Shown piece by piece: positions 9,079 to 18,156 of a DNA stretch of 64,000 bases. Position 1 is the first letter of the stretch. The number at the start of each line of letters is the position of its first letter. The notes under the pieces were generated by a model that was not told where the DNA came from, ran no database searches, and saw nothing but the letters and a program-made list of their open reading frames with translations. The position numbers were made by a program, and so were the translations under genes. The stretch lies in NCBI RefSeq assembly GCF_988242995.1, contig NZ_OZ547043.1; one strand, given 5' to 3'.

Positions 9079-12000
9079 ATGAGCGGAAAACCGGCGGCGC
9101 GACAGGGCGATATGACCCGCAAGGGACTGGATATTGTGCAGGGTTCAGCGGGGGTGCTGATAGGTGCGCCGACGGGAGTGGCCTGCTCGGTGTGTCCCAA
9201 CAGCCCGGTGGAGGAGCAGAAGGGTAACCCGGTGAACCCGCTACTGGGTGCGAAGGTGCTGCCGGGCGAGACGGATCTTGCGCTGCCCGGCCCGTTGCCG
9301 TTTATTCTTTCCCGCGCCTACAGCAGCTACCGGACCAGGACACCCGCGCCGGTGGGGGTGTTTGGTCCCGGCTGGAAAGCGCCCTTCGATATCCGCTTAC
9401 AGGTTCATGAGCGGGAACTGATACTCAACGACAGTGGCGGCAGGAGCATTCACTTTGAGCCGCTGTTTCCCGGCGAGATAAGCTACAGCCGCAGCGAGTC
9501 GTTCTGGCTGGCAAGGGGCGGGGTGGCGGAGCAGCACAGTTCGCAGCCGCTAAGCGCGCTCTGGCAGGTGCTGCCGGAGAGTCTCCGCTTAAGCCCGCAT
9601 GTGTACCTGGCGACAAACAGCCTTCAGGGGCCGTGGTGGATACTCGGCTGGCCGGAGCGGGTACCGGAGGCGGACGAGGTGCTGCCGCCGGAGCCGCCCG
9701 CATACCGGGTGCTGACGGGCGTGGTGGACGGCTTCGGGCGGACGCTGGCCTTCCACCGGGCGGCAGAGGGGGAAGCGGCGGGCGCGGTGACGGGGGTGAC
9801 GGACGGCGCGGGCCGCCGTTTTCATCTGGCGCTGACCACACAGGCGCAGCGGGCGAAAGCCTTCCGTAAACAGCGCGAGTCTTCTTTATCTTCTCCGGCC
9901 AGTCCCCGTTCTGTTTCCTCTTCTCAGTTTTTCCCCGACACGCTGCCCACCGGTACAGAGTACGGTGCCGATAACGGTATCCGGCTGGAGGCGGTATGGC
10001 TGACACACGACCCGGCATACCCGGATGAACTGCCGACTGCGCCGCTGGCGCGCTACACGTACACGGCCAGCGGAGAACTGCGGGCGGTGTATGACCGCAG
10101 CGGTACGCAGGTGCGCGGGTTTACTTATGATGCGGAGCACGCCGGGCGGATGGTGGCGCACCATTATGCGGGGAGGCCGGAGAGCCGCTACCGGTATGAT
10201 GATACCGGTCGGGTGACGGAGCAGGTCAACCCGGAGGGGCTGGACTACCGCTTTGAGTACGGGCAGGACCGCGTGACCATCACGGACAGCCTGAACCGGC
10301 GGGAGGTGCTGTACACGGAGGGCGAGGGCGGCCTGAAGCGGGTGGTGAAGAAGGAGTATGGGGACGGGAGCATCACCCGCAGCGAGTATGATGAGGCGGG
10401 GAGGCTGAAGGCGCAGACGGATGCGGCGGGACGGCGGACGGAGTACCGGCTGCATATGGCGTCGGGAAAGCTGACTTCAGTGATACTGCCGGACGGCAGG
10501 ACGGTACGGTATGGTTACAACAACCAGTTGCAACTGACGTCAGTGACGTACCCGGACGGGCTGCGCCGCAGCCGGAAATATGACCGTCAGGGCAGGCTGG
10601 CGGAAGAGGTCTCGCGCAACGGTAACATTACGCGCTGGTTTTATGATTCTTCCCGCAGTGGCCTGCCCTGTGCGGTGGAAGACGGAACCGGGGTGAGGCG
10701 GAGAATAACGCGAAACCGGTACGGTCAGCTTCAGGCATTTACGGACTGTTCAGGGTACACGACGCGGTATGAATACGACCGGTACGGTCAGAGGACGGCG
10801 GTTCACCGGGAGGAAGGCATCAGCACTTACAGCAGTTATAACCCGCGTGGTCAACTGGTCAGTCAGAAGGATGCGCAGGGACGTGAAACCCGTTATGAGT
10901 ACAGCGCCGCAGGCGACCTCACCGCTATCATTGCCCCGAACGGCAGCCGGAGTGAGACACAGTATGATGCGTGGGGAAAGGCCGTCAGCACCACGCAGGG
11001 CGGACTGACGCGCAGCATGGAGTATGACGCCGCCGGGAGCATCACCGTGCTGACCAACGAGAACGGCAGCCAGTCCACGTTCCGGTATGACCCGGTGGAC
11101 AGGCTGACGGAGCAGCGCGGCTTTGACGGCAGGACACAGCGTTACCGGTACAGCGCCACAGGGCAGCTCATCCGCAGCGAGGATGAGGGGCAGGTCACGC
11201 AGTGGTACTACGATGACGCCGGGCGCATCACGCACCGGACGGTGAACGGCGACCCGGCGGAGCAGTGGCAGTATGACGACCACGGCTGGCTGACAGAAAT
11301 CAGCCACCTGAGCGAAGGCCACCGTGTGGCGGTCCACTACGGCTATGACGATAAAGGCCGCCTGACGGGCGAACGGCAGACGGTGGAGAACCAGGAGACG
11401 GGGGAGATGCTGTGGGAGCATGAGACGAGGCACGTCTACAGCGAACAGGGGCTGGCGACCCGTCAGGAGCCGGACGGTCTGCCGCCGGTGGAGTGGCTGA
11501 CGTATGGCAGCGGTTATCTTGCGGGGATGAAGCTGGGCGGAACGCCGCTGGTCGAGTACACGCGGGACCGGCTGCACCGTGAGACGGCCCGCAGCTTCGG
11601 CGGGGCGGGCAGTACAGCGGGGTACGAACAGGCCACGGCGTACACCCTCACAGGGCAGCTCCGGAGCAGGCACCTGAACCTTCCGCAGCTTGACCGTGAG
11701 TATACGTGGAACGATAACGGGCAACTGGTGCGCATCAGCGGCCCGCAGGAGAGCCGGAAGTACCGTTACAGCGACACGGGAAGACTGACGGGCGTTCACA
11801 CCACGGCGGCGAACCTGGATATCGATATCCCGTATGCGACGGACCCGGCAGGAAACCGGCTGCCGGACCCGGAACTGCACCCGGACAGCACCTTCACGGC
11901 GTGGCCGGATAACCGCATCACGGAAGATGCGCACTATGTCTACCGCTACGATGAATACGGCAGGCTGGCGGAGAAGACGGACCGTATCCCGGAAGGGGTG

Positions 12001-13290
12001 ATACGGATGCACGACGAGCGGACGCACCACTACCATTACGACAGCCAGCACCGCCTGGTGTTCTACACGCGGATACAGCACGGCGAGCCACAGGTGGAGA
12101 GCCGCTACCTCTATGACCCGCTGGGCCGCCGGACGGGGAAACGGGTGTGGCGGCGGGAGCGTGACCTGACGGGGTGGATGTCGCTGTCGCGTAAACCGGA
12201 GGAGACCTGGTACGGGTGGGACGGTGACAGGCTGACGACGGTACAGACCGGCACCACGCGTATCCAGACGGTATACCAGCCGGGGAGCTTCACGCCGCTC
12301 ATCAGAATCGAAACAGAGAATGGTGAACAGGCGAAGGCGCGGCACCGGAGTCTGGCGGAGGTGTTGCAGGAGGACACGGGGGTGACGCTACCGGCGGAGC
12401 TGTCGGTGATGCTGGGGAGGCTGGAGCGGGAACTGCGCGCGGGTGCGGTGAGTGCGGAGAGTGAGGCATGGCTTCAGCAGTGCGGGCTGACGGCGGAACA
12501 GATGAAAAACCAGATGGAGGCGGAATACATCCCGGAGAGGACACTTCATCTTTACCACTGCGACCACCGGGGGCTGCCGCAGGCGCTCATCAGCCCGGAA
12601 GGGGAAACGGCGTGGCAGGGGGAGTATGACGAGTGGGGAAACCTGCTGGGCGAAACCAGCGCGCAGCAACTGCAACAGCCGTACCGTCTGCCGGGGCAGC
12701 AGTATGATGAGGAGTCGGGGCTGTACTATAACCGCAACCGGTACTATGACCCGTTGCAGGGGCGGTATATCACCCAGGATCCCATTGGGCTAAGAGGTGC
12801 ATGGAACCTGTATCAGTATCCATTGAATCCAACTACTAAGATAGATCCGTTGGGTCTCTCCGGAGAAGATTCCATAGAGCAGTCAGGTCCATCTTGGTTG
12901 ATTGCTGACCCCATGGATAAATACAGACAACAGGCAGTGATGGGTTTAACAAAATTGTGGGATGATACCTTTAGTCAAGAGAAGACTAAATGTTTACCTA
13001 CGACACCTGAAAACATCAGGATGGTTGTGGCCAACAGTCCCTTGTTGACAGTACAACAAAAAGTCTCAGTACCCGTAGTAGCTCACTACGTACAAATGCT
13101 GGAAGATGGTAGTGGAGCACCACCGGTTGATATGGATGGGAATGTGATTGTTAATGGTAATCACAGGATGGTTGCGGGTCTGTTATGTGATAAACTTCCT
13201 CCTGAGCGGCCAGGTACGCGTCCATTATCGGCACCACTATATCCGTTTAGCCAAATTTTTCCGGAGTTAGATGATTGGGGGAATAGATGA
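9079..13290 (+). CDS. rhsE: Rhs-family protein: YD-repeat core with a variable C-terminal toxin domain
   Basis: 1403-aa ORF starting [13 protein letters not shown]…; many YD/RHS repeats (…[12 protein letters not shown]…, …YEYDRYGQ…); core ends with the canonical …[31 protein letters not shown] (DPLGL at 12844-12858), followed by ~143 aa of unrelated AT-rich sequence; RBS aagga upstream. Confidence 0.9.
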
Positions 13291-13772
13291 TAAGAATCGC
13301 GTTTTTAATAACCAATAAATTTCTTGATATAGATAGTACCACTCTTGCTGGATATGATTTTAGCGGGATGGATCTACATCGTGCCATCCTCAATGGTTAT
13401 TGTCTTGATGGGGCGAAATTTGAAAATTCCCATTTAAGAAATGTAATGATTCAACATACATCAACTAGAAATGCTGTCTTTCGCAATGCGGCTCTGATGA
13501 ACGCTATTCTTAATAACTCAGATTTCACTGGAAGTGACTTTAGTAATTCAAGGTCAATAGGTGCAAACTTTGAGGGTGCTATATTAACTAATTCAACCTT
13601 TTGCAATGCAGACGTTAAAGATTCAAATTTTTCTGGTGCTGACTTATGTGGCGCTAATTTATTATGTGATAGATATGGCGATATAAATATAACAGGTGCA
13701 TTATTCGATAAAAACACCTCATGGTTAGAAGGTTTTGATCCTATAGCTCATGGGGCTATATTAAAAATATGA
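13287..13772 (+). CDS. ydcD: Pentapeptide-repeat protein, probable Rhs immunity protein
   Basis: 161-aa ORF whose ATG overlaps the rhsE stop (ATGA at 13287-13290); tandem A(D/N)LXX-type repeats (…[64 protein letters not shown]…); AT-rich like the rhsE tip. Confidence 0.75.
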
Positions 13773-14100
13773 CAAGGATCATAACTCATTATTTTCTGTG
13801 TCAGTAACACTGATGTGGAAAGTAGACTTACTTGCAATAGCCACCGGGATCTGCTGTTGAAAGCCGATCCCAAACAACCCCGGTTGCTGTGGTAAAGAGT
13901 CATAGTAGCGAGCGCAGGGGGAGTGCTCAGATTATATGAGATACAGTGAAATGAATAAACCCGAACCTGTGTTGACGTGTCGTTAGTCCTAAGCGGCATC
14001 AGAACCGGAGGTTTCGTGATACCGCCGTGATAAATTTACGGGTGAATTCCGAATGCTACGTAAAGGGTGTCCGGCGTATAGCAGACATCAGGATAAAAGT

Positions 14101-15494
14101 ATGAAAGCCCACGCCCCACAAGGCTTTACCGGATGATGAGTTTTTAAACTACGACATTACTTTTACAGTAAAATCCATCATGTTGGTATTTTCTCTCGAA
14201 CAATTTGACGATCCACGGAAAGATCACGTAACGCTGCTTTTTTGTACTAGACAATTCGCATTTTATGTTTAACAATTGAGATATTCCTCATTACCTGAAG
14301 CTGTTTTTTATTGCGTATACATGATCAAATACTCCTTACATAATTAAGGAGAACAAAATGGAACTTAAAAAATTGATGGAACATATTTCTATTATCCCCG
14401 ATTACAGACAAGCCTGGAAAGTGGAACATAAATTTTCGGATATTCTACTGTTGACTATTTGTGCCGTTATTTCGGGTGCAGAAGGCTGGGAAGATATAGA
14501 GGATTTTGGGGAAACACATCTCGATTTTTTGAAGCAATATGGTGATTTTGATAATGGTATTCCTGTTCACGATACCATTGCCAGAGTTGTATCCTGTATC
14601 AGTCCTGCAAAATTTCACGAGTGCTTTATTAACTGGATGCGTGACTGCCATTCTTCAGATGATAAAGACGTCATCGCAATTGATGGAAAAACACTCCGGC
14701 ATTCTTATGACAAGAGTCGCCGCAAGGGAGCGATTCATGTCATTAGTGCGTTCTCAACAATGCACAGTCTGGTTATCGGACAGATCAGGACGGATGAGAA
14801 ATCCAATGAGATTACAGCTATTCCAGAACTTCTTAACATGCTGGATATTAAAGGAAAAATCATCACAACTGATGCGATGGGTTGCCAGAAAGATATTGCA
14901 GAGAAGATACAAAAACAGGGCGGTGATTATTTATTCGCTGTAAAAGGAAACCAGGGGCGGCTAAATAAAGCCTTCGAGGAAAAATTTCCGCTGAAAGAAT
15001 TAAATAATCCAGAGCATGACAGTTACGCAATTAGTGAAAAGAGTCACGGCAGAGAAGAAATCCGTCTTCACATTGTTTGCGATGTCCCTGATGAACTTAT
15101 TGATTTCACGTTTGAATGGAAAGGTCTGAAGAAATTATGCGTGGCAGTCTCCTTTCGGTCAATAATAGCAGAACAAAAGAAAGAGCCAGAAATGACGGTC
15201 AGATATTATATCAGTTCTGCTGATTTAACCGCAGAGAAGTTCGCCACAGCAATCCGAAACCACTGGCACGTGGAGAATAAGCTGCACTGGCGTCTGGACG
15301 TGGTAATGAATGAAGACGACTGCAAAATAAGAAGAGGAAATGCAGCAGAATTATTTTCAGGGATACGGCACATGGCTATTAATATTTTAACGAATGATAA
15401 GATATTTAAGGCAGGGTTAAGACGTAAGATGCGAAAAGCAGCCATGGACAGAAACTACCTGGCGTCAGTCCTTGCTGGGTGCGGGCTTTCGTAA
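14101..15494 (+). mobile_element. H-repeat (ISAs1-family) element, copy 2, approximate boundaries
   Basis: Leader 14101-14215 matches the copy-1 leader (atgaaagccc(g/a)cgccccacaag…cgacattacttttа-like block …caatttgac); the 3' end gcgggctttcg at 15481-15491 is inverted relative to the 5' end; contains an intact transposase ORF. Confidence 0.5.
14358..15494 (+). CDS. ydcC: H-repeat-associated protein (ISAs1-family DDE transposase), intact
   Basis: 378-aa ORF; DDE-type transposase features; paralogous to the interrupted ORF at 7521..8657; RBS aaggag upstream. Confidence 0.85.
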
Positions 15495-15539
15495 TCTTGC
15501 CCTGCGCCAAAGATTCCATATAATAATATTAAGGTTGTT

Positions 15540-16175
15540 ATGAATAAAGGTAATAGATTACAACAGTTAGAAGATGCGTGTCGTGATATTATTAAAATTA
15601 ACATGTGGTATGAACTCCCCGATTATGTATTTTTTTCAATATCTGACACCATCGATGGGACGAGTGATGAATTTGCAATAAATGTGTATAAAAATATCGA
15701 TAAAAGTCTTCTTGAAATATTATTGCATCCATCTGTTTTACTGTCAGTTGTTGAGTCCTTACAAAGTAATACTATAGCTGAGTATATCGTGAAATTGTCT
15801 GGAATAGAGATGAATTATGACGACTTGCTAATATCGGATGTTAAGTCATGTCTTTTTATCAACTATGGATTCAATAACAGTGAATCGGTTGCGCTATTTA
15901 ATAAGATTTGCCGCGAATTAAAAGACATTGTAAAATCATCAAGAGTACATATAGATCATGAGAAAGATATTTTTGATGGCCTTAATCAAATCTTGGCTTT
16001 TTCCGATAATAATAAACGTGAGTATTTTTTATATATAAAGGCATATTGGCTCAGTTTATACTTTTGTGAAATTTCACAGAACGTGAGAGAAAGAGATAAG
16101 TTGTCATTTTATTATAATGAATTTTCTGTCCGATTTCCTAATGTTGTCCTATATCCGTCATGCTACAAATTGTAA
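15540..16175 (+). CDS. Hypothetical protein (AT-rich orphan ORF next to the Rhs/H-rpt region)
   Basis: 211-aa ORF with an ATG start and aagg 5 nt upstream; very AT-rich; no family recognisable by eye; lies immediately 3' of the H-rpt element. Confidence 0.5.
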   Translation: MNKGNRLQQLEDACRDIIKINMWYELPDYVFFSISDTIDGTSDEFAINVYKNIDKSLLEILLHPSVLLSVVESLQSNTIAEYIVKLSGIEMNYDDLLISDVKSCLFINYGFNNSESVALFNKICRELKDIVKSSRVHIDHEKDIFDGLNQILAFSDNNKREYFLYIKAYWLSLYFCEISQNVRERDKLSFYYNEFSVRFPNVVLYPSCYKL

Positions 16176-16566
16176 GGCTTGGCACCTGAAATTCATTGTT
16201 AATTCGAGACGCTTGATTGTCCACTATATCAAAACAGTCATACCTCGGAATTTCTCACATTAGTCCATACGGTATTCAATTTTCGCAACTGTGCCCTGAA
16301 ATAAAAAACTGCAAAACTGCTTTTTCTTGACCTGTCCCAATCACGCAAGACTACTTTTAGTAGAGACCTCCAGCCATATCGATTTTAGTGCCGCCCGCGC
16401 ATTTTATACAAAACAGGGCTTTATCAATGAAGCTATAATACGCAATTACTATGATGTTGGTGAGGATAAATTAATCTTCACTAAAAATATGCAATCGTGA
16501 GATAAAATATGCTTTTAACTCATATTGAAACATTGCTTACGCAACTTCGTTGCTGCATATGATTCT

Positions 16567-17136
16567 TTAGCCAGCGGTAATACGCTTGCCGCTGGTAACA
16601 AACGTGCCAGCACCTAAATGATGCAACGTATTGAGTTTGTCATCATCAAACTGCCAGCGGCCTTCGACAAATACTCGTGCGTCTGCCGCTGCTGATACTA
16701 CCTCGCCAAACAGTGTGTCGTATTTTTCTTGCGCAGAAGTCGCAGGTAGCAGGCGACACTCCATCCACGCCAGACATTTTTCCTCGACCAGCGGCAAACC
16801 AAGCACCGGGCCTCTCACTACCGGAATGCCGTAGCAATTAAATTTATCTTCTTCACGCCCCGACACACTTCCCACCGCCCACGTCCAGTTAGTTGCTGCA
16901 ACACCCGGGATAACGATGCCAAACTTACCATTACGTTCAATCAACTCCCTGGTCCATGTCGATTTATCTACCACAATCGCCACGCGTGGCGGTTCAAACT
17001 CCACCGGCATTGACCAGGCTGCTGCCATAATGTTACGCCGCTGGGATTGCTCATCGAAACTGGTGATCATGACAGTTGGGCCATGATTTAACAGACGGCT
17101 GGCATGGTGTAATTCGACGGGAATGAATTGGCTCAC
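16567..17136 (-). CDS. yddH: Flavin reductase-like domain protein
   Basis: 189-aa ORF; apparent GTG start with gagg RBS; flavin-reductase-like fold features (…PTVMITSFDEQSQRRNIMAAAWSMPVEFEPPRVAIVVDK…). Confidence 0.7.
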   Translation of the reverse strand: MSQFIPVELHHASRLLNHGPTVMITSFDEQSQRRNIMAAAWSMPVEFEPPRVAIVVDKSTWTRELIERNGKFGIVIPGVAATNWTWAVGSVSGREEDKFNCYGIPVVRGPVLGLPLVEEKCLAWMECRLLPATSAQEKYDTLFGEVVSAAADARVFVEGRWQFDDDKLNTLHHLGAGTFVTSGKRITAG

Positions 17137-17310
17137 GATATCGCCTCGCTATGAAGGGTGTTTTAAAAGCGTAGCTCGTAACGCAATAAGTAACGAAATT
17201 AACGGGATTGGCGATTTGCGAACGTGATGCATGTCCGCGATCGCACAAAATAGCCGGTGCAGCGTCTATTCCAGGTTATAAGTTGAGAAAACCACTAAGG
17301 GAAACGCCTG

Positions 17311-18156
17311 ATGACGCCCATTCTGAATCACTATTTTGCCCGTATTAACTGGTTGGGAGCTGCTGCGGCCAATATTGATACGCTGCGTGCATTGCACCTG
17401 AAACACAATTGCACCATTCCATTTGAAAACCTCGACGTTTTGCTGCCAAGGGAAATACAGCTTGATGATCAATCGCTGGAAGAGAAACTGGTGACAGCCC
17501 GTCGTGGCGGTTACTGTTTTGAGCAGAATGGCGTGTTTGAGCGGGTGTTACGCGAGCTGGGGTTTAACGTTCGCAGCTTGTTAGGGCGCGTAGTGTTATC
17601 AAATCCGCCAGCATTACCGCCGCGCACCCATCGTTTGTTGTTGGTGGAACTGGAAGGGGAAAAATGGATTGCTGATGTCGGTTTCGGTGGACAGACGCTA
17701 ACCGCGCCGATTCGTTTAGTTCCCGATCTCGTGCAGATCACGCCACACGGAGAGTATCGGTTGTTACAGGAGGGTGATGATTGGGTGTTGCAGTTTAATC
17801 ATCATCAGCACTGGCAGTCGATGTACCGTTTTGATCTCTGCGAGCAGCAACAAAGCGATTATGTAATGGGCAATTTCTGGTCGGCGCACTGGCCGCAGTC
17901 GCATTTTCGCCATCATTTGCTGATGTGCCGCCATTTGCCGGACGGCGGCAAGCTGACACTGACCAATTTTCATTTTACCCATTATGAAAATGGGCACGCG
18001 GTGGAGCAGCGAAATCTACCAGATGTGGCGTCGTTATATGCCGTGATGCAGGAACAGTTTGGTCTGGGCGTGGATGATGTGAAACATGGCTTTACTGTGG
18101 ATGAGTTAGCGCTGGTGATGGCGGCGTTTGATACGCACCCGGAGGCGGGAAAATAA
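17311..18156 (+). CDS. nhoA: Arylamine N-acetyltransferase (N-hydroxyarylamine O-acetyltransferase)
   Basis: 281-aa ORF with the catalytic cysteine motif RGGYCFEQN and a conserved NAT fold; RBS aaggga. Confidence 0.9.
   Translation: MTPILNHYFARINWLGAAAANIDTLRALHLKHNCTIPFENLDVLLPREIQLDDQSLEEKLVTARRGGYCFEQNGVFERVLRELGFNVRSLLGRVVLSNPPALPPRTHRLLLVELEGEKWIADVGFGGQTLTAPIRLVPDLVQITPHGEYRLLQEGDDWVLQFNHHQHWQSMYRFDLCEQQQSDYVMGNFWSAHWPQSHFRHHLLMCRHLPDGGKLTLTNFHFTHYENGHAVEQRNLPDVASLYAVMQEQFGLGVDDVKHGFTVDELALVMAAFDTHPEAGK

Follow-up and report, generated by a model that had tools for sequence, protein, structure and literature searches.

A ParB/sulfiredoxin-like toxin tip and its probable pentapeptide-repeat immunity protein at the rhsE locus of Escherichia coli

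What does the C-terminal tip of the Rhs protein encoded at the Escherichia coli rhsE locus do, and which gene protects the producing cell from it? The locus lies in a 64,000-nucleotide stretch of contig NZ_OZ547043.1 (assembly GCF_988242995.1), referred to below as the window, in which an intact rhs gene is followed by a gene for a 161-aa pentapeptide-repeat protein (PRP). A first-pass annotation had placed the end of the Rhs core at 12858, followed by a tip of 143 codons, an ATGA stop/start overlap and the 161-aa PRP; all of these coordinates agreed with the sequence. It had also read the pair as a polymorphic toxin/immunity cassette. The comparisons described here bear this out and make such a cassette highly probable: the tip domain occurs on many unrelated carriers, and an orthologous PRP is encoded next to it, and co-diverges with it, in most of the loci collected. 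The PRP is thus very probably the cognate immunity protein of the tip toxin.

The rhsE tip domain and its pentapeptide-repeat partner

The tip sequence alone had no significant match in Pfam (none at E≤10), NCBIfam, PADLOC, PDB (phmmer) or PHROGs, and a word-indexed protein search returned two fragments only, probably because full-length Rhs proteins cluster under representatives that carry other tips. Searching 1.84 billion cluster representatives (50% identity) with HMMER recovered 329 proteins containing the tip domain at E≤1e-3, and 117 at E≤1e-10. The matches always spanned tip residues ∼40–143 and ended at most 5 residues from the C-terminus in 133 of the 151 best matches. Carriers ranged in length from ∼100 to 2,388 aa and included DUF6531-Rhs proteins, SpvB/TcdB/Rhs proteins, one 477-aa non-Rhs protein and short orphans, to which the AlphaFold database added CdiA-like (DUF637, filamentous haemagglutinin), HINT and VgrG carriers. 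Such a spread is typical of polymorphic-toxin warheads and suggests that the tip is one of them.

The family followed the consensus Q..VS.P.V.RY...L..G..APPIKVDG.VIVDGNHRY.AG....P...PGT...........I..D..DWGN. Two residues, S70 and G100 in tip numbering, were invariant, and Q66, P72, Y77, G84, P88, H102, R103, A106 and D139 were nearly so; the E. coli tip keeps all of them. Within the signature VDG[N/H]HRY.AG the G was invariant, H and R were present in at least 96% of members, and N mostly took the place of the first H.

The linker between DPLGL and the toxin core (12859–12999; 45 residues in E. coli) is polar and possibly helical. At the same position close relatives (P0004 and P0007) carry glycine-rich hydrophobic segments, for example GAGALVGGGTVATTATVGTL, which look membrane-inserting and might be relevant to how the toxin enters its target cell. 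In at least one E. coli genome a copy of the tip is frameshifted (P0001, 80 aa): it is identical up to ...DKLPPERP and then continues in another frame, so that the toxin is decaying in some strains.

The PRP matched PF00805 (E 1.8e-8), PF13599 (E 1.8e-6) and also PF13576 in Pfam. Its ∼25 pentads run from residue 16 in a single unbroken register, equivalent to ∼6 coils, and the tandem A(D/N)LXX repeat predicts a right-handed quadrilateral β-helix. The ATGA overlap and the Shine-Dalgarno-like run that precedes it point to translational coupling of the toxin and PRP genes.

If the two genes form a unit, the PRP should accompany the tip domain elsewhere. Three distant loci drawn from the protein index encoded a PRP of 150–163 aa directly after the toxin stop codon, mostly with the same 4-nt overlap. 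These proteins start MIRI, MITI or MLIR and were 32–38% identical to the E. coli PRP over nearly the full length, non-repeat ends included; a full-length identity of 38% was found for the PRP that follows a distant Rhs protein with the same toxin. Scanning one genome per species for the pattern [VI][DE]G[NH]HR[YMF][VIA]A, which under-samples variants, yielded 65 further loci. Their sources include Neisseria, Aggregatibacter, Snodgrassella, Pseudomonas, Achromobacter, Pantoea, Budvicia, Sinorhizobium, Sorangium, Chryseobacterium, Flavobacterium, Mucilaginibacter, Cytobacillus, Hungatella, Patulibacter and Pirellula, and metagenome-assembled genomes of Verrucomicrobia, Acidobacteriota, Gemmatimonadota and Fusobacteriales.

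As judged with a hidden Markov model (HMM) built from four PRPs, the next open reading frame (ORF) encoded an orthologous PRP of ∼160 aa in 56 of the 68 loci, which represent about ten phyla; at least 400 nt were available downstream of the toxin in 65 of the 68. Matches mostly exceeded 100 bits, and the 4-nt overlap (offset −3) recurred in many loci. To control for specificity, all 2,330 stop-to-stop frames of at least 80 aa in the 605 kb of loci were scored with the same HMM. This gave 58 matches, namely the 56 adjacent PRPs and two more from the ∼2,270 other reading frames: the PRP beside a second toxin copy (L031) and another frame over the partial PRP of L028, itself one of the 56. The PRP followed the toxin domain regardless of what carried it, also on CdiA-like, HINT and short orphan modules that lack a type VI secretion system (T6SS) context. 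Toxin and PRP distances were correlated over 36 complete pairs (Mantel r 0.68; none of 2,000 permutations reached this value), a co-divergence that for neighbouring genes shows joint inheritance and not contact.

A remnant of the pair was also found away from rhsE. Downstream of rhsA, a 320-bp fossil that holds the final 36 nt of the toxin together with 285 nt from the 5' end of the PRP gene (window 13252–13571, ∼95% identity) sits in an orphan-immunity array (E. coli SW4848, L002 9001–9320) among NTF2-fold, DUF6258, Imm57 and yibA (HEAT-repeat) genes. The fossil was present in 275 complete E. coli genomes, 132 of them without the full cassette. Taken together, adjacency, the specificity control, co-divergence and the fossil put the toxin/immunity reading on about as firm a footing as is possible short of experiment.

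Two loci showed other arrangements. Candidatus Thiomargarita nelsonii (L031) has two toxin copies, one at 3553–3822 with a PRP at 3816–4304 and a truncated one at 5950–6240 with no PRP, in what looks like an orphan-module array. In Sinorhizobium sp. 6-70 (L014, 6330 onward) a complete toxin domain with a DWGNR end terminates a carrier of >2,100 aa with no small downstream ORF; the next ORF (1,958 aa) begins 123 nt later, so that the locus holds either a cassette without adjacent immunity or tandem toxin genes.

Immunity to an Rhs toxin by a PRP had initially been considered unusual, a view that two precedents correct. In Stenotrophomonas rhizophila the Rhs C-terminal toxin Tse6, in which its authors recognized no fold and which they provisionally termed a nuclease, is paired with the PRP-like immunity protein Tsi6a, and orthologues are reported on PAAR, Rhs, HINT and two-partner secretion (TPS) carriers in Actinomycetes, Proteobacteria and Planctomycetes (bioRxiv 10.64898/2026.07.13.738213). 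PRP genes also adjoin GH-E Rhs nucleases (PMC5714182). Compared by description only, Tse6 might belong to the same toxin family as the rhsE tip; the named tip-family matches included no Stenotrophomonas, Mycobacterium or Clavibacter proteins.

Fold and relatives of the tip domain

Prediction of the tip structure from the single sequence with AlphaFold failed, with a predicted local distance difference test (pLDDT) score of 37.6. When AlphaFold2 was supplied with a 93-sequence alignment of the family (A1), the toxin domain was modelled at a pLDDT of 94.1 and a predicted template modelling (pTM) score of 0.87. A Foldseek search of AFDB50 returned members of the toxin family, many of which bear the UniProt name 'ParB/Sulfiredoxin domain-containing protein'. 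The best Pfam match of the family alignment was ddrB-ParB (E 0.36, below significance), and PHROG 1033, 'ParB-like partition protein', was matched by seven of eight family members (E 0.007–0.29); both matches were placed on the DG[N/H]HR stretch. In hhalign the segment VQrYV..Le.G..aPPIkV...IVDGNHRYiAG was aligned with KVQSLVDTIREDPDSVPPIDV...FGGCHRYAAY of human sulfiredoxin, the sequence of which was confirmed against PDB 1yzs. With a probability of 5.9% and a pairwise E of 0.0064, we regard this match to a single sulfiredoxin sequence as supportive, not decisive.

Some results weigh against the assignment. Foldseek comparison of the tip model with the PDB was not significant, no ParB sequence model reached threshold for the tip family, and PF02195 (ParBc) gave no match. 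An hmmsearch of the PDB with the toxin family profile likewise found nothing significant. Considering both sides, the model leads us to predict with good confidence that the toxin domain of the tip adopts a ParB/sulfiredoxin fold. The alternative of reading NGNHR as an HNH/His-Me nuclease motif was rejected, since the model and all structural matches were of the ParB/sulfiredoxin type and none was of the ββα-metal type.

The tip had at first been described as a toxin of unknown family that could not be assigned to a known fold. The latter statement holds for direct sequence searches of Pfam, NCBIfam and the PDB, but profile and structure methods lead to ParB/sulfiredoxin; the former no longer applies, as the predicted fold and the DG[N/H]HR motif place the tip in the Tox-ParB class (PMC3482391). 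This class was catalogued in 2012, yet the tip family escapes every Pfam and NCBIfam model.

In the catalogue of Zhang, de Souza, Anantharaman, Iyer and Aravind (2012, PMC3482391), Tox-ParB domains carry a DGHHR motif and sit on RHS and filamentous-haemagglutinin proteins. By description, not sequence, the tip family resembles the class in its C-terminal ParB fold, its DGHHR-type motif and its wide phyletic spread over type V secretion system (T5SS), T6SS and other routes. It differs in that the motif is DG[N/H]HR, mostly with N, in having an invariant upstream Ser-x-Pro and in matching no ParB sequence model. The partner also differs, being a PRP here and Imm20, Imm27 or Imm-SuFu in the catalogue, the first 300,000 of whose 357,715 characters do not mention pentapeptide repeats (PMC3482391). 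A 2025 survey described ParB-motif Rhs tips in Pectobacterium and Dickeya, which were presumed to be DNases; the AlphaFold database matches of the tip family include an Rhs fragment of Pectobacterium parmentieri.

Possible toxin chemistry and modes of neutralization

How might such a domain intoxicate a cell? The known activities of the ParB/sulfiredoxin superfamily are binding or hydrolysis of CTP or ATP (ParB, KorB, PadC and ToxB) and ATP-dependent phosphotransfer (sulfiredoxin, SerK and SbnI), with DNA cleavage less secure among them. Sulfiredoxin, SerK and SbnI themselves differ from the tip domain in that they are housekeeping enzymes with 9–19% identity, and the catalytic Cys of sulfiredoxin corresponds to Asn or His here. 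A precedent among toxins is ToxB, a CdiA toxin that binds and hydrolyses ATP, does not bind DNA, depends on its Box II arginine and causes nucleoid collapse, and whose immunity protein, iToxB, supplies some of the residues in the nucleotide pocket (bioRxiv 10.64898/2026.05.05.722872). Set against the rhsE pair by description, ToxB and iToxB likewise combine a ParB-fold polymorphic-toxin warhead with a small downstream immunity gene (bioRxiv 10.64898/2026.05.05.722872). ToxB is found by PF02195, follows VENN on CdiA and is rare (52 species), whereas the tip family has no PF02195 match, resides on Rhs in E. coli and comprises 329 clusters, although CdiA-like carriers occur in it as well. iToxB is not described as a PRP. 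The ToxB precedent and the superfamily site together argue for a nucleotide-dependent toxin that would act in the cytoplasm and be blocked by direct PRP binding.

The PxxxxDPxGL motif is established in Rhs and Tc proteins as the core/tip boundary and the site of self-cleavage. By analogy, the Rhs shell would enclose the 143-aa tip, free it by self-cleavage after DPLGL and deliver it into neighbouring bacteria. The active part would be the last ∼100 residues of the tip, a minimal ParB/sulfiredoxin-fold domain in which the conserved Ser-x-Pro and DG[N/H]HR elements may form a nucleotide-phosphate site equivalent to the GxxR 'Box II' of ParB and to H100/R101 of sulfiredoxin. The toxin could then poison the cytoplasm through nucleotide-dependent phosphate chemistry, which might be hydrolysis of a nucleoside triphosphate (NTP), as for ToxB, or phosphotransfer, as for sulfiredoxin, SerK and SbnI. 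The translationally coupled PRP would bind the toxin directly and occlude its active site. From the architecture, fold, motif and co-inherited pairing found here we infer that the tip is toxic, what it catalyses and how the PRP neutralizes it. As a whole, an NTP-dependent ParB/sulfiredoxin-fold toxin that is delivered by Rhs and blocked by PRP binding is our best explanation, with a probability of about 0.6. The NTP-dependent, non-nuclease activity, taken by itself and by analogy with the superfamily, has close to an even chance.

DNA mimicry is well established for PRPs such as MfpA and Qnr, and the alternative that survives best builds on it: the tip would be a ParB-like DNase, and the PRP would neutralize it by filling the DNA-binding cleft in place of DNA. 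This comes nearest to the mechanism first suggested for the pair, in which a DNA-mimic PRP implied a toxin that may act on a DNA-handling enzyme or bind where DNA would. The PRPs are consistently acidic, with a net charge of −5 in E. coli (mildly acidic) and a family median of −6.4, and the occurrence of PRP genes beside the GH-E Rhs nucleases (PMC5714182) would fit the same scheme. A DNA binder would be expected to be basic, however, and the toxin core is roughly neutral (median net charge +0.5; −2 in E. coli). The conserved residues of the PRP outside the repeat do not form an acidic stripe either. They comprise LHRA (30–33) and LR.A (50–53), of which H31, R32 and R51 are basic, and a C-terminal T.WP.GF.P...G cap; since LHRA and LR.A are exactly 20 residues apart and each coil takes up four pentapeptides, they should lie at the same corner of adjacent coils.

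Similarity to the DNA-mimic proteins is also limited. Like Qnr, MfpA and AlbG the PRP has a tandem A(D/N)LXX repeat and is acidic overall; unlike them it has the basic conserved residues and the distinct C-terminal cap, is partnered with a secreted toxin and not a topoisomerase, and at ∼25 pentads, or ∼6 coils, is shorter. Its NCBIfam scores fell far below the cut-offs for MfpA (37.2 against 360 bits), Qnr (32.3 against 240) and QnrB (33.5 against 460). In addition, ToxB, the only ParB-fold polymorphic toxin studied, is an ATPase without DNA binding, and the HAD-phosphatase partners of sister lineages, described next, would be unable to undo DNA cleavage. We therefore consider a DNase with a DNA-mimic antidote rather unlikely, and the DNA-mimic mechanism of the PRP as such somewhat disfavoured.

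The HAD partners occur in two groups, both with divergent or degraded toxin copies. At four Bacteroidota loci standalone toxin-domain relatives of 128–153 aa are followed by a HAD phosphatase-like protein of ∼150 aa, with no PRP. The partner in L056 matched HAD_SAK_2 over its full length (PF18143, 'HAD domain in Swiss Army Knife RNA repair proteins'; E 1.5e-22) and keeps the DxDxV, TTSHK and DDD motifs. In three Sphaerotilaceae genomes toxin modules 44–45% identical to the E. coli tip are each followed by a HAD-like protein of ∼115 aa with the motifs DVDDT, SSGG and IDDQ, the relatives of which are named 'HAD superfamily phosphohydrolase' or DUF705. The toxin copies are frameshifted or interrupted in Mitsuaria and Roseateles, and end early without the DWGN tail in Mitsuaria and Paucibacter. 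A general link of this small DUF705-like family to the toxin was set aside, because in Deinococcus and at one other locus its members stand beside no toxin remnant; only one branch of the family thus appears to have been recruited.

Beside this toxin family stand two HAD proteins that are unrelated to each other and keep their catalytic motifs, which suggests that the toxic product may be a phosphoester. A kinase or phosphotransferase might account for such a product more readily than a nuclease, an idea to which we give low odds. Extended to a complete scheme, a ParB/sulfiredoxin-fold kinase or phosphotransferase would transfer phosphate from ATP to an essential substrate, be it a nucleic-acid end, a nucleotide or a protein, and would be countered by two kinds of antidote. 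In E. coli and most lineages the PRP would plug the substrate or nucleotide site, and elsewhere a HAD protein would remove the phosphate, namely HAD_SAK_2 in Bacteroidota and the DUF705-like protein in Mitsuaria, Paucibacter and Roseateles. This scheme is speculative and, in our estimate, unlikely; if true, the toxic activity would be new among polymorphic toxins, and PRPs would have a new role that is not DNA mimicry.

Qnr and MfpA shield gyrase, and with AlbG they provide a model in which the PRP would protect the cellular target of the toxin, a topoisomerase or another DNA-handling enzyme, without binding the toxin. MfpA and Qnr are indeed among the weak best NCBIfam matches of the PRP. If the PRP guarded a highly conserved target, it should itself have stayed conserved, and the PRPs have not: their mean identity is 34%, and they diverge in step with the toxin. 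Moreover, the cassette is found across phyla on carriers of T5SS, T6SS and other types, and in some toxin lineages an unrelated HAD protein takes the place of the PRP, a pattern that points to a toxin-specific antidote, and the orphan fossils lie in arrays of toxin-binding immunity genes. Shielding of the target by the PRP is accordingly very unlikely. Least probable of all is an accessory or chaperone role, with immunity provided from elsewhere or not needed: pentapeptide proteins are known as the T6SS accessory genes tagAB and tagB (PMC3942780), but the rhsE PRP gene is coupled to the toxin stop codon, the ORF list of the window holds no other small ORF between the tip and the ISAs1 element, PRPs also follow CdiA-like, HINT and short orphan carriers without T6SS context, and the PRP fossil sits in an orphan-immunity array.

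The surrounding locus and the place of the family

Coordinates of the cassette, its flanking elements and the HAD-partner sites are collected in Table 1. The 914-bp cassette is no artefact of the window: it was present at ≥99% identity in 143 of 5,426 complete E. coli genomes (∼2.6%), always on the chromosome, and a tblastn search of plasmids gave a single Pseudomonas match. In the genome inspected it occupied the rhsE locus in the order yncG–ISAs1–rhs–PRP–ISAs1, and PGAP names the identical genes 'RHS element core protein' and 'pentapeptide repeat-containing protein'. The GC content falls from ∼0.64 in the Rhs core to ∼0.42–0.46 across the tip and ∼0.34 over the PRP gene, a core/tip break that is classical for Rhs and the signature of a displaced tip. 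Scans for promoters and terminators around the cassette found no more sites than in shuffled sequence.

Table 1. Features of the rhsE cassette (window positions) and HAD-partner sites in sister lineages (positions within the named locus)
Feature	Location	Strand	Basis or remark
Truncated ISAs1 (H-repeat) transposase gene, upstream of rhs	7800–8657	+	ISAs1 pseudogene in annotation of matching genome
Rhs gene, intact, 1,403 aa	9079–13290	+	ORF and translation
Rhs delivery part: N-terminus, YD-repeat shell and RHS-associated core domain, ending in DPIGL...DPLGL	9079–12858	+	
PxxxxDPxGL motif, core/tip boundary and expected autoproteolysis site	12829–12858	+	Read from sequence
Tip, 143 codons	12859–13287 (stop 13288–13290)	+	
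Tip linker, residues 1–37, variable within the toxin family	12859–12969	+	Family matches start at about tip residue 40–48
Predicted ParB/sulfiredoxin-fold toxin domain, tip residues 38–143	12970–13287	+	
NGNHR, predicted Box II/GxxR-type phosphate-binding motif	13153–13167	+	Conservation; hhalign to GGCHR
GGGGGA Shine-Dalgarno-like run 4 nt before ATG, with ATGA stop/start overlap	13277–13290	+	Sequence
PRP, 161 aa, presumed cognate immunity protein	13287–13772	+	Pfam, synteny, co-divergence
ISAs1 (H-repeat, ydcC-type) transposase gene closing the Rhs element	14358–15494	+	Annotated 'ydcC: ISAs1 family transposase'
HAD-partner sites, Bacteroidota	L056 6345–6809; L064 6344–6808; L065 6339–6815; L070 6332–6769		
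HAD-partner sites, Sphaerotilaceae	Mitsuaria L010 1173–1529; Paucibacter L033 435–704; Roseateles L074 3001–3414		

Long antisense ORFs within the Rhs core (9425–12345, minus strand; for example 10750–12345, 531 aa, and 9425–10018, 197 aa) were rejected as genes because their Arg/Pro/Ala-rich translations are the usual artefact of a coding region of 64% GC. Directly after the ISAs1 element lies an AT-rich ORF of 211 aa (15540–16175, plus strand), which is called 'hypothetical protein' or 'aminopeptidase' in related genomes. The region 13773–17500 is only ∼96% identical to complete E. coli genomes, and the toxin/PRP cassette 100%.

In its architecture the cassette is an ordinary Rhs polymorphic-toxin module, and the fold class of the toxin had already been catalogued. 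In the literature searched, including the supplement of the 2012 catalogue, we came across no account of a ParB-fold toxin that has a PRP as its immunity protein. What appears to be new is, first, the large ParB/sulfiredoxin toxin family that current models do not cover, and its occurrence at rhsE in ∼2.6% of the complete E. coli genomes; second, its near-obligate pairing with one orthologous group of PRPs, which is absent from the Tox-ParB immunity list in the portion of the catalogue considered above; and third, the alternative HAD partners.

Warheads with a ParB/sulfiredoxin fold were catalogued in silico in 2012, and one of them, ToxB, has been studied experimentally (2026 preprint); the tip family is much commoner. 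This minimal family of ∼100 aa escaped the Pfam, NCBIfam, PADLOC and PHROGs models applied, and the records inspected label its members 'RHS element core protein' or 'hypothetical'. Profiles made from alignment A1 and the PRP alignment would let both genes be named in annotation. The HAD-phosphatase partners give a direct experimental handle on the chemistry of the toxin, and dozens of natural toxin–antidote pairs are available for studies of specificity. For the PRPs, a large class of mostly function-less proteins, the pairing offers a concrete job as the antidote to a nucleotide-binding toxin.

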